Under the pieces are notes generated by a model that was not told where the DNA came from, made no database searches, and saw nothing but the letters and a program-made list of their open reading frames with translations. Position numbers and translations under genes: made by a program. A stretch of 64,000 nucleotides of DNA. It comes from Escherichia phage vB_EcoM-UFV06. Numbering within the stretch: the stretch's first letter is position 1; each line of letters opens with the position of its first letter. The stretch lies in the sequence record OP555980.1. One strand, 5' to 3'. Shown here piece after piece: positions 18,699-63,038 of this stretch.

Positions 18699-19226
18699 TT
18701 ATGCGAGTACCGTCTTTAACCGTTCTTCAAACTTCCGAAGAGTATTCTGGCGTTCAGCTCTTTGCTTTTTGTAAGTTTCAATACGCTCTGAAATGAGAGT
18801 GTATCGTTCATTTACTGATTCTTTCATAAAATCAGGAATTTCACGAGAAGCTTTAATCTCGTCAAATTTATCAATAACAGCTTGCTCTTCAGCAATTAAG
18901 TTATCATACATCAAAATATCTTTCTTGATGAACTCAATATCTTCTTGAGTTACACGAGATAATTTAAATGCTTTATCCTTTTTGTACTGTTCGTTAGTAT
19001 CACGAGACCAGTGTAATGTACGATTTTTATTCGTATTCTTATAAATTTCTACAATACCAATATCATCAATAATAACGATCCAATTCCAACGGGATTTGTA
19101 AATTTGTCCTCCATCAACTGTGATTTCACCTCCGATTGAGATGTCATTAAAGAACTTGCTTTGTGCTTCTGATTTAAATTTACCATCGTTGTAATTTACC
19201 AAGTTGAAAATATCTTTAGCGTTCAT
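18699..19226 (-). CDS. Hypothetical protein (about 175 aa)
   Basis: ATG at 19226 with GGAGG Shine-Dalgarno; the track N-terminal extension is translated promoter sequence. Confidence 0.5.
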   Translation of the reverse strand: MNAKDIFNLVNYNDGKFKSEAQSKFFNDISIGGEITVDGGQIYKSRWNWIVIIDDIGIVEIYKNTNKNRTLHWSRDTNEQYKKDKAFKLSRVTQEDIEFIKKDILMYDNLIAEEQAVIDKFDEIKASREIPDFMKESVNERYTLISERIETYKKQRAERQNTLRKFEERLKTVLA

Positions 19227-19254
19227 TTTCTGTTCCTCCGTAGTTGATAGTTGT

Positions 19255-19283
19255 ATAGTACCACAGAGGAACAGTCTTGTAAA
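19255..19283 (-). promoter_or_regulatory. Early promoter (sigma70-type)
   Basis: Minus-strand TTTACA, 17 bp, TACTAT; member of a conserved repeated block. Confidence 0.6.
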
Positions 19284-19286
19284 CAA

Positions 19287-19690: not shown

Positions 19691-20659
19691 TTATTTCAGA
19701 AGAGTAACCTCAGCGATTTCTTCCCAACCGTTTTTGTCGGTCATAATAAAGTCAGCAAGATAAAGAGCAGTACGCAGTGAAACATTGCGTAAACGATTAA
19801 CATTGACTTTCATCCATGATAATGCTTTATAAGTTTCTTCATCAGAAAGACCGCGCTTTTGCATCATGTCAGTTGAAAGAATAACATCTTCAACCCTGAC
19901 CATAATTTCTTCATTAGTGTGAACACCCAAATCCAAATAAACTGAGCGGGACACTAATGCTTGTAAATGTGGAGCAAGTTTAGTACCACGGTCTAATTCG
20001 CGGTCAATGTCAACGTTTGTGATAAAAACAATCGTTCCTTTAAATTCAAACTCACGCTCAATGCCTTTTTCTTCTAAGTAAGAAGATGCAGTGCTCCAGC
20101 AGACTTTACGGGTCTCTCCAGTGTCCAGAGCAGCTTTCAGAAGATTAAGAATGTCCATATCAGAGAAAACATCCACATCATCAATCAAAAGGACAGAATT
20201 CTCTTCACGATTATTCCAAAGCTGCTCATAAAGACCAATACCAGAGATTTTACCATTAATGCTTTTATATTCAATGTATCCAATATCATTTGCTTTATTT
20301 AAAGCTTTATCTAAAGAATACGTTTTACCAATACCCGCCGCACCAGAGATAATTAATGAACGAATGTTTCCGTTAATAATACCATTCGTCATCATTCCCA
20401 TAACATTAAATCTTTTATTAATGCGGGTTTTCATATCTTCATATGATTCTTTAACTTCTTCAACTTTTACACCATCATATGAAATGTCTGATTTGTAAAC
20501 CCAAACACCGCGACGTTTACCGTCAATTTCAACAAAAACTTTACCATCTCCTTGTGCATCTACTGGGGCATTATCAGGGAACCACTCACCTAAGAGTTCA
20601 AAAGTTCCAGAGATTTCTTTGCCAAAGTAGATACCCTTATTGATAGTTACAGTTTTCAT
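19691..20659 (-). CDS. P-loop/AAA-type ATPase, function unknown
   Basis: Walker A GAAGIGKTYS and Walker B LLIDDVD; ATG at 20659 downstream of an early promoter. Confidence 0.6.
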   Translation of the reverse strand: MKTVTINKGIYFGKEISGTFELLGEWFPDNAPVDAQGDGKVFVEIDGKRRGVWVYKSDISYDGVKVEEVKESYEDMKTRINKRFNVMGMMTNGIINGNIRSLIISGAAGIGKTYSLDKALNKANDIGYIEYKSINGKISGIGLYEQLWNNREENSVLLIDDVDVFSDMDILNLLKAALDTGETRKVCWSTASSYLEEKGIEREFEFKGTIVFITNVDIDRELDRGTKLAPHLQALVSRSVYLDLGVHTNEEIMVRVEDVILSTDMMQKRGLSDEETYKALSWMKVNVNRLRNVSLRTALYLADFIMTDKNGWEEIAEVTLLK

Positions 20660-20693
20660 TTTATTCTCCAAATCCGTATCAGTTGATAGTTGT

Positions 20694-20722
20694 ATAGTAC
20701 CATAAAGCTTTATGCTTGTAAA
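20694..20722 (-). promoter_or_regulatory. Early promoter (sigma70-type)
   Basis: Minus-strand TTTACA, 17 bp, TACTAT; same conserved block. Confidence 0.6.
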
Positions 20723-20754
20723 CTGTTTTGTGAAAAAATTTTTGAAATAAAAAA

Positions 20755-30659: not shown

Positions 30660-31133
30660 TTATTTGAATGATTTAACGTACTGAATAGAACCTTTACTAT
30701 TCACAAAGGCAATTTTACCATTTTTGTTATACATAGTAGCAGTACGTTGATAGCCATAAGTTTGTTTACCAGATTGATAACCAACTAATGCGAAATTATC
30801 TTCACCCATTTTATTCTGTTTAGCGCGAATGCGTTCATGACCATGTGCCATAAGAACCTTAGCATCACCAGTTGCAATGGACCGACGAGTTTTTTCATCT
30901 TCAACTGTATTAACAAAGTCGTCAAATGAATCAAATTTAGCATGAGATTTATTATACAGTTTTCCATCTACTGCATAATTATATCCTTGTACATCCATCT
31001 CAACTTCTGTACCATCATCTAATACCGCAGTAATTTTCTGTCCTTTTTTAAATTTCAAAAGATCAGTAAAAGATTCAGCAATAATTTGAGAATTAATAGC
31101 TGCTTCAGTAATAAATTCTTTATACGTTTTCAT
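30660..31133 (-). CDS. Internal (capsid-targeted) protein, ip3-position
   Basis: N-terminus MKTYKEFITE matches the capsid-targeting-sequence pattern with an I-x-E cleavage site; 157 aa. Confidence 0.55.
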   Translation of the reverse strand: MKTYKEFITEAAINSQIIAESFTDLLKFKKGQKITAVLDDGTEVEMDVQGYNYAVDGKLYNKSHAKFDSFDDFVNTVEDEKTRRSIATGDAKVLMAHGHERIRAKQNKMGEDNFALVGYQSGKQTYGYQRTATMYNKNGKIAFVNSKGSIQYVKSFK

Positions 31134-31149
31134 GTGTATCCTTTAATTT

Positions 31150-31467
31150 TTATTCTTTAGGGAAGTTTTTAGAATATGCATCATAAAGCTTATTTCCAAT
31201 ACGGCGGAAAACTCTAGCCGCAAAACGATTTTCTGGGTTTTTAATCATGATTTGCATCATATAAGTACCCGCGTCAGAAAGAGCTTCTTCATAGTACCCG
31301 TTAATTTCTTTAAGAGTCCTACGTTTACCACCAGGACCATCAACAGTGATTTTCCATTTACCTGTAGAAGTGCGACTTGGCGGTTCAACTTGTTCAATCC
31401 AGATATAACCGCCTTCTACACGCTGTCCTGCAACAGATTCTGCAATAAATTCTTTATACGTTTTCAT
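31150..31467 (-). CDS. Internal (capsid-targeted) protein, ip2-position
   Basis: N-terminus MKTYKEFIAE; 105 aa, basic. Confidence 0.55.
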   Translation of the reverse strand: MKTYKEFIAESVAGQRVEGGYIWIEQVEPPSRTSTGKWKITVDGPGGKRRTLKEINGYYEEALSDAGTYMMQIMIKNPENRFAARVFRRIGNKLYDAYSKNFPKE

Positions 31468-31538: not shown

Positions 31539-32507
<969 letters not shown>

Positions 32508-34080: not shown

Positions 34081-34257
34081 TTATACTCCGGATAGTTTGT
34101 AAACTATTTCAACATCGCCTTTTGCTGCTTTATAACCTTCAGCCCAAGATATAACCGAGTTTTTATCCGAAGATTCAAATTCTGGCATTGGGCTTTCGCC
34201 AATGTTCACGCAGTATGTTTCTTCATTTTCGTCAAACCAAATAATTAAAGTAGTCAT
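34081..34257 (-). CDS. Hypothetical small protein (58 aa)
   Basis: Hand-translated ORF MTTLIIWFDENEETY...; below the track cutoff. Confidence 0.3.
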   Translation of the reverse strand: MTTLIIWFDENEETYCVNIGESPMPEFESSDKNSVISWAEGYKAAKGDVEIVYKLSGV

Positions 34258-34325: not shown

Positions 34326-34589
34326 TTATTTCATATTATTGAAATATTCTTCTGCAATTTCGTCGTTATCATGGTAAACTTTAGAAGACAGTTTAACATA
34401 ACCTTCAGCAGTGAACATGTTAATCACAACCTTTACAGTATACCACTGACCATCTTCATTACCCATTACTGCGTAAGTTTCAAACATCGGATGATCAGGA
34501 CCGATAACTTTAATATCATTCACTGTACGACCAAAATCTTCTGAAACACATTTCATAAAGAAGTTGAACAGTTCGCCGTAATTATCCAT
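34326..34589 (-). CDS. Hypothetical protein (about 87 aa)
   Basis: ATG at 34589 with GGAG Shine-Dalgarno downstream of an early promoter. Confidence 0.45.
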   Translation of the reverse strand: MDNYGELFNFFMKCVSEDFGRTVNDIKVIGPDHPMFETYAVMGNEDGQWYTVKVVINMFTAEGYVKLSSKVYHDNDEIAEEYFNNMK

Positions 34590-34632
34590 TTCATTCTCCA
34601 AGTTGTTTTCTGTATCAGTAGTTGATAGTTGT

Positions 34633-34661
34633 ATAGTACCATAGAAGAACAGGGATGTAAA
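34633..34661 (-). promoter_or_regulatory. Early promoter (sigma70-type)
   Basis: Minus-strand TTTACA, 17 bp, TACTAT with upstream A/T-rich element; same conserved block. Confidence 0.6.
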
Positions 34662-34795
34662 CAGTTTTGTGAAAAATTTTTTAAAAAGTTTTGGGGAATT
34701 CTAGGGCAAGGAGGGGAAATTAAAGGATAGGATAATATATTATAAAGGGTAGAAACTAAATGATGCCTAGAGAGGCCTGGAAAGGCTTAGATACC

Positions 34796-34826
34796 AAAAA
34801 GCCCCAACCTTTTGGTCGGGACTAAG
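34796..34826 (-). terminator. Intrinsic terminator, copy 1 of a 31-bp direct repeat
   Basis: Minus-strand 10-bp stem, AAAA loop, then UUUUU; 30/31 identical to 35351..35381. Confidence 0.7.
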
Positions 34827-34830
34827 AATG

Positions 34831-35304
34831 TTATTTGATTTGTTTAGCAGACCAAATGCGGTCTTTAATAATTTTTTGGATGTCTTCAACATACTCAAGA
34901 GAATGAGCATGTGGGTTATCTTTAAAGCTATGAGCACGAGCTAGCTTTTGGCCTTCAGTTTTGATTACTAAAAGCTCTTTAAGGATAGCTTCATATTTGG
35001 AGATAATTCCTTTAACGATATTTTTTTCTTGTGCGACTTTAGGATCTGCTTTAGGAGCAGGTTTACCCGAAGCCTTTGCAAAAGCAGCGCCAGTAGCAAC
35101 TAAACTTTTCCAGGCCATACTAACTGCATTTCCCGTAAATCCTTCCGCTTTCATGTCGCGTGCGAACTGGAATCGTGATTCATCAGAAGCATCTTTGTAA
35201 GAATATTTACCCGCTGCAATGGCTGCTTTTGCGACAGCTTGAATTTCGGTGCTAGATGCTTCATTTAACACCGCTTCATTTAAAAATTGAGTATATGATT
35301 TCAT
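34831..35304 (-). CDS. Putative capsid-targeted internal protein (157 aa), function unknown
   Basis: N-terminus MKSYTQFLNE resembles the capsid targeting sequence with an L-x-E site; late promoter upstream; flanked by duplicated terminators. Confidence 0.5.
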   Translation of the reverse strand: MKSYTQFLNEAVLNEASSTEIQAVAKAAIAAGKYSYKDASDESRFQFARDMKAEGFTGNAVSMAWKSLVATGAAFAKASGKPAPKADPKVAQEKNIVKGIISKYEAILKELLVIKTEGQKLARAHSFKDNPHAHSLEYVEDIQKIIKDRIWSAKQIK

Positions 35305-35340
35305 CTTATTTCCTGTTTTAATTCGTGGATTTAATATACT

Positions 35341-35348
35341 TATTTATA
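35341..35348 (-). promoter_or_regulatory. Late promoter box TATAAATA
   Basis: Perfect TATAAATA on the minus strand about 36 bp upstream of the ATG at 35304. Confidence 0.55.
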
Positions 35349-35350
35349 CT

Positions 35351-35381
35351 AAAAAGCCCCAACCTTTTGGTCGGGGCTAAG
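35351..35381 (-). terminator. Intrinsic terminator, copy 2 of the 31-bp direct repeat
   Basis: Minus-strand 10-bp stem, AAAA loop, then UUUUU. Confidence 0.7.
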
Positions 35382-35429
35382 CCTTGCGGCAACCTTGTCG
35401 GGGTTCCACCTGCTAAGGCAAGTGTTTGT

Positions 35430-35521
35430 ACGAAACGCCGGGATTCGAACCCGGTTATTAAGCAGTTGACGCTACTCAATATTTTTAAAAGGCCATATCT
35501 CGACCATATCCGAACGTTCCG
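35430..35521 (-). ncRNA. Candidate tRNA-like/structured small RNA
   Basis: Canonical T-arm ccggg-TTCGAAT-cccgg with an acceptor-like 7-bp pairing, but no clean D or anticodon arm; T4 is reported to encode stable RNAs near its tRNAs. Confidence 0.3.
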
Positions 35522-35685
35522 TCAAAAACGCTACTCGGCTTACGGCAAAGATATTTCCTCGAATCGATAATTCGGTGCGCCGTTTCTGCTGTGATAGTAA
35601 AGAGCCAGAACACAGTAAAACTGTGGGAGGAAACTATACTCCAGGGAACATCAGTCCGACGACTTACCGGTAGCGACCCGGTTTC

Positions 35686-36036
35686 TTAGTATTCTTTTAA
35701 AGCATCAATTTGTTCACGGCGTTTACGCCATAAATCAATTGCTTCATAAGCAGATTCAGCATTTCGAATTAGCCGACATTTATATAAAGACTTGTGATTT
35801 TGGTATTGCGTAGATAATGGAATTTTATCTAAAAGGTCTTTGCGTTCAAAGTATTCGTAACCATCTAAACCAAATGAACGATTTTTGAGAAATTGCCAAT
35901 GACCATATTCGTTTTCGACATAAACATAATCTGCATGCTGATAAAGCAAATTAATTACACGTTCAGAAATAACAGTATCATTATGATTAAAATAGAATGT
36001 TAAATCATGAACTACTAAATAAACATTACCTTTCAT
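35686..36036 (-). CDS. Hypothetical protein (116 aa)
   Basis: ORF immediately downstream of tRNA-Arg. Confidence 0.45.
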   Translation of the reverse strand: MKGNVYLVVHDLTFYFNHNDTVISERVINLLYQHADYVYVENEYGHWQFLKNRSFGLDGYEYFERKDLLDKIPLSTQYQNHKSLYKCRLIRNAESAYEAIDLWRKRREQIDALKEY

Positions 36037-36054: not shown

Positions 36055-36130
36055 TGGTCGAGGCAGTAGGGATCGAACCTACGACCCAGGACTTAGAAGG
36101 TCCTTGCTCTTCCTTCTGAGCTATGCCCCG
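36055..36130 (-). tRNA. tRNA-Arg (anticodon UCU)
   Basis: Hand-folded cloverleaf; anticodon loop CUUCUAA; CCA encoded. Confidence 0.8.
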
Positions 36131-36134
36131 TAAT

Positions 36135-36210
36135 TGGGGTGACCGATGGGAGTCGAACCCATGACTACGAGAATCACAATCTCGAGTTCTACCAACTGAA
36201 CTACGGCCAC
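36135..36210 (-). tRNA. tRNA-His (anticodon GUG)
   Basis: Cloverleaf; anticodon stem CGAGA/UCUCG, loop UUGUGAU; discriminator C73; no encoded G-1. Confidence 0.75.
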
Positions 36211-36324
36211 ATTAATACCTACTCCAACAATCATGATGTCTTCACACGAAATTAAGAGAAGAGTGATCAGTTCAACCCCTATAATCGCGTCAAGTAGATA
36301 TTAATGTGACAGTTGTCACAAATT

Positions 36325-36399
36325 TGGCGGACGTGATAGGATTCGAACCTATAACCAATCGCTTAACAGGCGATCGCTCTGCCATTGAGCTACACATCC
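36325..36399 (-). tRNA. tRNA-Asn (anticodon GUU)
   Basis: Cloverleaf; anticodon stem AUCGC/GCGAU, loop CUGUUAA. Confidence 0.75.
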
Positions 36400-36403
36400 A
36401 AAT

Positions 36404-36490
36404 TGGTGGGGAGTGATGGAGTCGAACCACCCGAGTCGCAATGACAATGAATTTACAGTCCACACCGCTACCTCTACGGGATAACTCCCC
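36404..36490 (-). tRNA. tRNA-Tyr (anticodon GUA), class II, probable
   Basis: 87 nt with long variable arm; GACUGUAAAU anticodon region as in bacterial tRNA-Tyr; anticodon stem has two G-U pairs. Confidence 0.55.
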
Positions 36491-36496
36491 TTAATT

Positions 36497-36571
36497 TGGT
36501 GGCCCTGGGTGGAATTGAACCACCATCTGGCGATTATGAGTCGCTTGCTTGAACCTTCCAGCTACAGGGCC
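36497..36571 (-). tRNA. tRNA with anticodon CAU (Ile2 or Met)
   Basis: Cloverleaf; loop CUCAUAA; T4 tRNA-Ile is reported to use a modified CAU-type anticodon. Confidence 0.7.
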
Positions 36572-36572
36572 T

Positions 36573-36648
36573 TGGTGCTGATTGACGGAATCGAACCGCC
36601 GACATCCTCATTACAAGTGAGGTGCTCTACCTACTGAGCTAAATCAGC
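36573..36648 (-). tRNA. tRNA-Thr (anticodon UGU)
   Basis: Cloverleaf; loop CUUGUAA. Confidence 0.8.
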
Positions 36649-36653
36649 AAAGC

Positions 36654-36743
36654 TGGCGGAGGCGATAGGATTTGAACCTATGAATCGCCGGAGCGACTGC
36701 CGGTTTTCAAGACCGGTGCATTAAACCACTCTGCCACGCCTCC
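36654..36743 (-). tRNA. tRNA-Ser (anticodon UGA), class II
   Basis: 90 nt; anticodon stem CCGGU/ACCGG, loop CUUGAAA; long variable arm. Confidence 0.8.
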
Positions 36744-36745
36744 AG

Positions 36746-36819
36746 TCTCCATACAAGGATTTGAACCTTGGACCTCCTGATCCCAAATCAGGCGCTCTAC
36801 CAAACTGAGCTACACGGAG
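36746..36819 (-). tRNA. tRNA-Pro (anticodon UGG)
   Basis: Cloverleaf; loop UUUGGGA; CCA not encoded. Confidence 0.75.
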
Positions 36820-36829
36820 TAAATTAAAT

Positions 36830-36903
<74 letters not shown>

Positions 36904-36908
36904 AAATT

Positions 36909-36995
36909 TGGTGCGAGAAGTGGGACTCGAACCCACAAGGAAATCATTCCGCAGCATTTTAAGTGCTGTGCCTTTACCAATTTGACCATTCTCGC
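36909..36995 (-). tRNA. tRNA-Leu (anticodon UAA), class II
   Basis: 87 nt; anticodon stem CAGCA/UGCUG, loop CUUAAAA. Confidence 0.8.
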
Positions 36996-36996
36996 G

Positions 36997-37069
36997 CTGG
37001 GAATAAAGGATTCGAACCTTTGCATCTAGCAGTCAAAGTGCTATGCCTTACCAACTTGGCTAATTCCCA
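36997..37069 (-). tRNA. tRNA-Gln (anticodon UUG)
   Basis: Cloverleaf; anticodon stem UAGCA/UGCUA, loop CUUUGAC; CCA not encoded. Confidence 0.75.
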
Positions 37070-38633: not shown

Positions 38634-38918
38634 TTACAAAAGATTTTTAGCAATAATTTTAAGCTGAGCTACTGAAATATGCTTGGCTTTAAACAAAGCA
38701 GTTTCTTCAGCAGGGGAGATAACGATTGTAGCACCATCTTTCTTAGCGGACCATCCATCACCCAGGTAAACAGTACCTTTGACTTCTTCGCCATCAACCA
38801 GGCTAATCATCGGTTTACCTTCACGTCCTTTGTTTGCTTTAATAACTTCAGAAGTAAGGGTCGCTTCAGTCAAAGTAGAAGCGTTAGTGGTTGAAGTGAA
38901 TTCTTGATAAGTTTTCAT
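38634..38918 (-). CDS. ipI: Internal protein I
   Basis: 94 aa; N-terminus MKTYQEF capsid-targeting sequence; position upstream of 57B. Confidence 0.7.
   Translation of the reverse strand: MKTYQEFTSTTNASTLTEATLTSEVIKANKGREGKPMISLVDGEEVKGTVYLGDGWSAKKDGATIVISPAEETALFKAKHISVAQLKIIAKNLL

Positions 38919-59900: not shown

Positions 59901-63038
<3,138 letters not shown>

Follow-up and report, generated by a model that had tools for sequence, protein, structure and literature searches.

A terminator-flanked, putatively late cassette encoding a candidate internal head protein between rnaC and e.8 in Tequatrovirus and related phages

The window analysed here is the whole 64-kb stretch (64,000 nucleotides) of Escherichia phage vB_EcoM-UFV06 (OP555980.1). 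The gene order of the window is that of T4, with ip genes, e, nudE, the e.2-e.8 region, rnaC, tRNAs, ipI, 57B, 57A and gene 1. Over the 801 bases around the cassette described below, Escherichia phage vB_EcoM-UFV09 and its siblings showed 100% identity and hundreds of other Tequatrovirus genomes showed 97-99%; judged by sequence, the source of the window is a Tequatrovirus. The features found between and including the homologs of rnaC and e.8 were the following.

35429..35567, minus strand: rnaC (species 1 RNA) homolog, upstream neighbour, sharing about 98% identity with T4 rnaC and placed by alignment with the annotated T4 sequence; its transcript is predicted to end at the first terminator.
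35346..35381, minus strand: upstream terminator copy; stem-loop 35378..35355, then a T run whose final GTAT runs into the late box; -24.1 kcal/mol, z = -4.5.
35341..35348, minus strand: putative late promoter box of the T4 type, TATAAATA, 36 nt before the ATG at 35304.
35309..35314, minus strand: Shine-Dalgarno sequence AGGAAA, read from the sequence.
34831..35304, minus strand: coding sequence of the candidate internal protein, 157 aa (cassette A, PHROG 2280); ORF with a phrog_2280 profile match.
35260..35304, minus strand: codons 1-15, capsid-targeting-like leader MKSYTQFLNE plus duplicated AVLNE, by the criteria of PMC9026906.
34791..34826, minus strand: downstream terminator copy; stem-loop 34823..34800, then a T run; -17.0 kcal/mol, z = -3.7.
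34633..34661, minus strand: early-type (sigma-70-like) promoter of e.8, TTTACA, 17-nt spacer, TACTAT, with an upstream TG; conserved in T4.
34326..34601, minus strand: e.8 homolog, downstream neighbour and right edge of the slot; ORF and alignment with T4.

An initial annotation of this DNA had placed a 157-aa ORF at 34831..35304, starting with MKSYTQFLNE and carrying an L-x-E site, and its coordinates and translation were correct. The N-terminus reads MKSYTQFLNEAVLNE, and L-x-E sites end at residues 10 and 15. The two near-identical terminators said to bracket the unit were also found, each a strong 10-bp GC-rich hairpin followed by a T run and each called by the terminator scan. They are identical at 30 of 31 positions (35381..35351 versus 34826..34796), and BLAST lengthened the repeat to 36 bp with 34 identities (35381..35346 versus 34826..34791). 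The repeat occurred twice in the 64-kb window versus 0 occurrences expected by chance. The early-type promoter of e.8 comes after the second terminator of the cassette.

Variants private to one genome were seen in both of its terminator copies. In the window each loop reads AAAA, versus GAAA in T4, T2, T6 and RB14, and both stems in Mosigvirus SF are CCCCTTCC. This sharing suggests gene conversion between the two copies.

A T4 late unit is recognised by its box at -10, the lack of a -35 element, a short leader and a Shine-Dalgarno sequence, and depends on gp55, gp33 and gp45. The sequence features of such a unit are present ahead of the candidate gene and are positionally conserved across genera, although the motif itself is at chance frequency in the AT-rich window, with 12 occurrences of TATAAATA observed and 10.95 expected. 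The claim of a perfect late box 36 nt upstream therefore held for its location and its recurrence in other genera, while the motif alone was not significant and was ruled out as proof of a late promoter. The weight of the box comes solely from its conservation at the equivalent position in other genera. The neighbours had been described as early-promoter genes, and this agreed with our results: besides the promoter of e.8, early-type promoters precede both ipI and the ip gene at 31150..31467, and no TATAAATA late box was found ahead of either in the window. The early-type promoter upstream of ipI (to 38990) consists of TTTACA, a 17-nt spacer and GATACT and overlaps a small hairpin. Immediately upstream of the lysozyme gene e there are two tandem TATAAATA boxes, 13 bp apart (32047..32067, minus strand).

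Several other features of the region were recorded. The rnaC homolog (35429..35567, minus strand) was called by neither ARAGORN nor Rfam in the window, and one depositor annotates it as tRNA-Lys. rnaD was not seen between rnaC and tRNA-Arg, where its place is taken by a 116-aa ORF (35686..36036, minus strand; phrog_3355, unknown function). The tRNA cluster (36055..37069, minus strand) contains 11 genes (Arg, His, Asn, Tyr, Met/CAU, Thr, Ser, Pro, Gly, Leu and Gln) versus 8 in T4, and the T4 homing endonuclease gene segB is absent from it. At the T4 e.7 position, between e.8 and e.6, lies a 58-aa ORF (34081..34257, minus strand); ORFs of equal length occur there in RB14 (ncORF134c) and fD1 (g138), which makes this another small replacement polymorphism. 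The early-promoter region of e.8 (34587..34686) has copies at 20657..20747 and 19226..19285 of the window that are 76-85% identical. These copies may form an extended early-promoter sequence family, which could double as recombination linkers.

Homologs of the candidate gene were located in five Tevenvirinae genera, between rnaC (three genera) or tRNA genes on one side and e.6 on the other, with e.8 additionally found downstream in Mosigvirus and Dhakavirus. The homologs in all five genera retain the leader, and most also retain a terminator followed by a late box. Upstream of the Dhakavirus ESCO10 homolog the T run of the terminator is followed by GGTATAAATA, and upstream of the Jiaodavirus KEN39 homolog a terminator with a different stem (CCCCGTC/GACGGGG) is followed by AGTATAAATA; in both genera, as in the window, the box comes directly after the T run. 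In Tegunavirus fHe-Yen9-01 a two-gene operon is preceded by a terminator and then, about 20 nt past its T run, by TATAAATA. Late boxes with one mismatch were found in Mosigvirus SF (AATAAATA) and in a metagenomic contig (CATAAATA). The initial annotation had proposed a self-contained late transcription unit, and this agrees with the recurrence, ahead of the homologs of five genera, of a terminator and then TATAAATA or a box with one mismatch. The layout predicted to give late, insulated expression is conserved even where the sequence of the terminator stem differs. The two-gene unit of the Yersinia phage fHe-Yen9-01 (L012 1922..3037) contains a B-like gene (189 aa, MLQYNEFLKE; see below for cassette B) and then an A-like gene (178 aa, MLEYSEFLKE), with one terminator and TATAAATA in front and another terminator at the end.

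When the window was aligned with T4, exactly 555 extra bases were found. T4 runs from the end of the rnaC region to the e.8 promoter region with a single terminator, and T2 and T6 have the same empty site with a single terminator. No trace of the candidate gene was detected by tblastn in the loci taken from T4, T2 and T6. For a wider survey of the slot, the T4 empty site was used as query and the span of the joined flanks was read in a spread sample of 42 Tequatrovirus-like rows. An insert of 555-559 bp (cassette A) was present in 26 of the 42 rows, the site was empty in 5, and a single row had an insert of 683 bp containing cassette B only. Only the e.8-side flank matched in the remaining 10, and both of those opened (ESh32 and OE5505) contained A and then B, with a copy of the same terminator ahead of each. 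Gene A was found by tblastn in 511 phage records, 469 of them at a coverage of at least 80%, and cassette B in 165 phage records. RB33, RB18, AR1 and BASEL Bas42 are among the carriers of gene A. The locus comparison across Tevenvirinae that had been proposed with the initial annotation thus found the cassette variably present, and the idea of a swappable module was upheld: what is missing from T4, T2 and T6 is precisely the unit and one repeat, and among the phages the slot is empty or holds A, B or A and B.

The 683-bp insert of RB14 corresponds to RB14ncORF136c, which encodes 187 aa starting with MKTYAEFLTEAAK. Cassette B (RB14ncORF136c, or RB69ORF148c-149c) resembles A in its slot, its leader type (MKTYAEFLTE), its PHROG (2280), and its similar size and charge; in some phages the two genes stand in tandem. 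It differs from A in that pairwise similarity is marginal (hhalign probability 46%), the terminator is its own and a different one, and the upstream late box has one mismatch (GATAAATA). That A and B are unrelated genes was rejected on the common PHROG 2280, although the pairwise similarity is marginal, and they are best seen as remote paralogs. The loci of cassette B were L003 1817..2380 (RB14), L005 2416..2976 (ESh32) and L004 2414..2976 (OE5505), either alone or downstream of A. The B gene is split by a frameshift in OE5505 and in RB69 (ORF148c/149c), and gene A of OE5505 has lost its leader through a frameshift. The most parsimonious reading of the slot states is that the cassette is ancestral in Tevenvirinae and that T4, T2 and T6 lost their copy by recombination between the terminator repeats.

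In the capsid targeting sequence (CTS) of T4 IPIII the first ten residues suffice, with positions 4 and 7 important for targeting and positions 8 and 10 for processing, and gp21 cleaves after L/I-X-E (PMC9026906, reviewing Black's work). The candidate leader has Tyr4, Phe7, Leu8 and Glu10, followed by Ala, and so agrees with a CTS at all four experimentally mapped IPIII positions. A five-residue duplication creates two candidate gp21 sites, in which LNE is followed by A after residue 10 and again after residue 15. Relatives that are only 26-51% identical overall retain M-x-x-[YF]-x-[EDQS]-F-L-x-E, and the leader is the best-conserved stretch of the protein; the N-termini of distant members include MLKFNEFLAE, MINFSDFLNE, MKSFSSFLNE and MLEYSEFLKE. 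These results sustain the description of the leader as capsid-targeting-like. At the DNA level the leader was identical to the other leaders of the window at only 15-25 of 33 positions, a divergence that indicates constraint on the peptide and not a recombination linker.

The three other small proteins with similar leaders that had been listed in the window (30660..31133, 31150..31467 and ipI, 38634..38918) are encoded by real genes. A loose leader pattern was matched by only 3 ORFs in the 64-kb window, the other two being the internal-protein genes next to e. One of these (31150..31467, minus strand), at the ipII/ipIII locus, encodes a 105-aa protein with a perfect CTS, MKTYKEFIAE followed by S; its sole match is phrog_3966 ('unknown function'), which makes it another unnamed internal-protein family. 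The gene at 30660..31133 (minus strand), in place of T4 ipII/ipIII, encodes a 157-aa CTS protein (DUF7412, phrog_3155 'internal virion protein'). This gene also occurs in T2 (62429..62902), under the erroneous name 'valyl tRNA synthetase modifier'. The ipI allele of the window (38634..38918, minus strand) has a leader of 18 residues, MKTYQEFTSTTNASTLTE followed by A, versus 19 residues in T4.

The candidate protein is basic, with a pI of 9.5 and 21 Lys; T4 IPI-III and T2 Ip7 have pI values of 8.9-9.6. Among Tequatrovirus, Mosigvirus and Dhakavirus alleles dN/dS was 0.05-0.12, values at which the candidate is a real gene under strong purifying selection. The AlphaFold model (pLDDT 74) is all-helical: a leader of low confidence precedes a four-helix N-domain, which is joined by a KPAPKADPK linker to a long C-terminal hairpin. 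The N-domain is conserved, and relatives from Klebsiella and Yersinia phages have a different C-terminal half. Within a long, confidently predicted helix lies a third L-x-E site, LKE, which ends at residue 110.

The profile search that had been proposed returned PHROG 2280 only and no characterised family. The phrog_2280 profile matched residues 1-157 with E = 3e-60 and carries the label 'unknown function'; it also matches cassette B along its entire length, as well as the relatives from Klebsiella and Yersinia phages. An HMM search of 1.84 billion representative proteins gave 13 matches only, a tiny family, with nothing beyond that family and no functional clue. In Pfam and NCBIfam the candidate had no match, whereas the ipI of the window matched its Pfam family at 1.3e-51. 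The PDB profile search yielded a single spurious match to a repeat protein with no valid stretch, and Foldseek against PDB and BFVD returned nothing but the candidate's own ortholog. No sequence or structural similarity of the candidate was found to Ip1/IPI* (PF11634, GmrSD inhibitor) or to any characterised inhibitor, and Rfam had no match inside the cassette. Homologs are named 'hypothetical protein' throughout the databases, except for one Klebsiella phage homolog that a single depositor called 'internal head protein'.

The ortholog in Yersinia phage fD1 (HE956711), g140, is 98% identical to the candidate, and the published LC-MS/MS analysis of purified virions scored it as particle-associated (at least 2 peptides, mean spectral count at least 2) in a list that is unspecific. 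The fD1 virion table (data set PXD026812) flags 113 phage proteins, among them DenV, lysozyme, NudE and thymidine kinase. Since many of these are non-structural, the detection of g140 gives weak support for encapsidation. According to the table, no T4 protein resembles g140.

From the anatomy of the unit, the leader, the promoter and terminator layout, the polymorphism of the slot and the purifying selection we infer packaging, cleavage, injection and an anti-defence target, as follows. The 555-bp unit would be a self-contained late cassette for a head-packaged, injected protein of the internal-protein class, probably acting against host defence, that is ancestral and has been lost, duplicated or replaced via its terminator repeats. 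We give this reading as a whole a probability of about 0.7. The first terminator would stop transcription coming from the tRNA genes and rnaC. Late in infection, RNA polymerase modified by gp55 and gp33 would initiate at TATAAATA, transcribe the 157-codon gene and halt at the second terminator; with a late box of its own and two terminators, expression would be late only and insulated from the early e.8 unit. The leader MKSYTQFLNE would direct the precursor into the scaffolding core of the prohead, where the gp21 prohead protease would cleave after Glu10 and/or Glu15, at L-N-E before A. The predicted new N-terminal peptide is AVLNEASSTEIQAVAK for a cut after E10 or ASSTEIQAVAK for a cut after E15. 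The basic product of about 15.5-16 kDa (pI 9.5) would remain in the head with the DNA and be ejected together with it into the next host, where it would most likely neutralise a host defence that acts ahead of phage gene expression. The analogy with Ip1, Ip2 and Ip3 would make a type IV (GmrSD-like) restriction enzyme a possible target. Finally, recombination between the flanking terminator repeats would account for loss, duplication or replacement of the cassette, with T4, T2 and T6 as deletion derivatives.

Internal-protein genes have been assigned to two loci only, with T4 early promoters and weak AT-rich stem-loops as flanks, and are described as absent elsewhere (PMC2839356). As summarised in the same source, Repoila et al. 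1994 described CTS-bearing, highly variable internal-protein genes between conserved regulatory flanks, and more than 30 variants were counted later (PMC2839356). Silas et al. 2025 likewise recognised two Ip loci and found that each of Ip1, Ip2 and Ip3 blocks a GmrSD type IV restriction enzyme of its own (PMC12373910). The same authors tested ip1-10 against further GmrSD groups, which gave no new pairs and left five active groups without an inhibitor (PMC12373910); the sequence strings of the candidate were not found in the supplements of that paper. The candidate has in common with T4 IPI-III and Ip4-Ip10+ (Repoila et al. 1994; Mullaney & Black 1996; Silas et al. 2025) a 10-residue leader with Tyr/Phe4, Phe7, Leu/Ile8 and Glu10 followed by Ala. 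Like the T-even internal proteins it is small, basic, Lys-rich, non-essential and variably present, and its gene, like theirs, lies between conserved regulatory sequences able to recombine. It differs from them in that there is no sequence or fold similarity past the leader and in that it occupies a third locus, rnaC to e.8, and not the ipI or the ipII/ipIII locus. The cassette also has a late box only and GC-rich intrinsic terminators, whereas the described ip loci have early promoters and AT-rich stem-loops, and it is conserved across five genera, which Ip1-3 are not. On these sequence comparisons the candidate would be an unnamed, uncharacterised member of the T-even internal-protein class, an assignment that forms part of the reading preferred above. 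The family may already be among the more than 30 published IP variants. The candidate had been called novel, which fits insofar as it is unnamed and uncharacterised; however, it is already present in about 470-510 deposited genomes as 'hypothetical protein', and the idea of shuffled CTS genes dates, according to the later account, from 1994 (PMC2839356).

The layout can also be compared with the PeSL (promoter-early stem-loop) cassettes, mobile regulatory units known from phages of the RB49/phi1 type (Arbiol et al. 2010; Comeau et al. 2014). In both, repeated terminator stem-loops surround a single accessory ORF, presence or absence is attributed to recombination between the repeats, and the unit has its own promoter and terminator and leaves its neighbours undisturbed. 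In contrast, PeSLs use a strong sigma-70-like early promoter and occur in many copies in hyperplastic regions, while the candidate unit has a T4 late box and 2 copies of its repeat in the 64-kb window.

The anti-defence role proposed here for the candidate is drawn by analogy only, and the DNA modification of some carrier genera may differ from glucosyl-hmC, which weakens a strictly GmrSD-specific role. A more far-reaching version, which we put forward tentatively and consider rather doubtful in its full extent, would regard PHROG 2280 as a third, ancestral internal-protein locus, late-only and terminator-insulated, from which injected A, B and C-terminal-hairpin variants inhibit a defence other than the GmrSD enzymes blocked by Ip1-3; the products would then share the conserved N-domain as their scaffold and owe their target specificity to the variable C-terminal hairpin.

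The strongest competing explanation, although unlikely, retains packaging through the leader and gives the protein a structural or generic role in charge neutralisation, DNA condensation or ejection, or end protection, with no specific defence inhibited. The basic composition with 21 Lys and the KPAPKADPK linker would suit such a role, as would an all-helical model with fold matches only to generic helical hairpins, and in T4 heads the lysines of internal proteins contact DNA phosphates (PMC3012670). Strong purifying selection and conservation in five genera are likewise unusual for a gene in a fast arms race. However, the gene is dispensable, being absent from T4, T2, T6 and others; a very divergent paralog takes its place or accompanies it; relatives from Klebsiella and Yersinia phages carry a swapped C-terminal domain; and frameshifted copies exist. 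This combination of dispensability, replacement, domain swap and frameshifts fits the pattern of accessory counter-defence genes. Moreover, all three T4 internal proteins are specific inhibitors (PMC12373910).

It is considerably less probable that the product stays out of the head as a late cytoplasmic protein and that its resemblance to a CTS is a functionless remnant of recombination with internal-protein genes. In favour of this reading, the fD1 particle list is rich in non-structural proteins, and both the locus and the promoter type are unlike those of the described internal-protein loci. Against a remnant, the leader is the most conserved segment in proteins of 26-51% overall identity, with all four mapped positions kept, and its DNA has diverged from the other leaders, which argues against a recent recombination scar; late-only timing would also match prohead assembly. 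Least credible of all is a scaffold accessory that enters the prohead core and is then degraded by gp21 like gp22, gp67 and gp68, so that it is not delivered to the next host: core proteins are indeed cut at several internal L-x-E sites (PMC9026906) and the candidate has a third one (LKE, residue 110), but this site lies within a confident helix while the leader that holds the two N-terminal sites is modelled with low confidence, mature fD1 particles yielded at least 2 peptides of the ortholog, and the gene is non-essential.

The candidate gene for a packaged, probably anti-defence internal protein is thus widespread, occurring in about 470-510 deposited genomes and in five genera. The cassette was overlooked because T4, T2 and T6 have no copy and because its locus lies outside the two at which internal-protein genes were expected. 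With five active GmrSD groups left without an inhibitor among the ten ip genes (PMC12373910), there is a context in which this cassette is a candidate.
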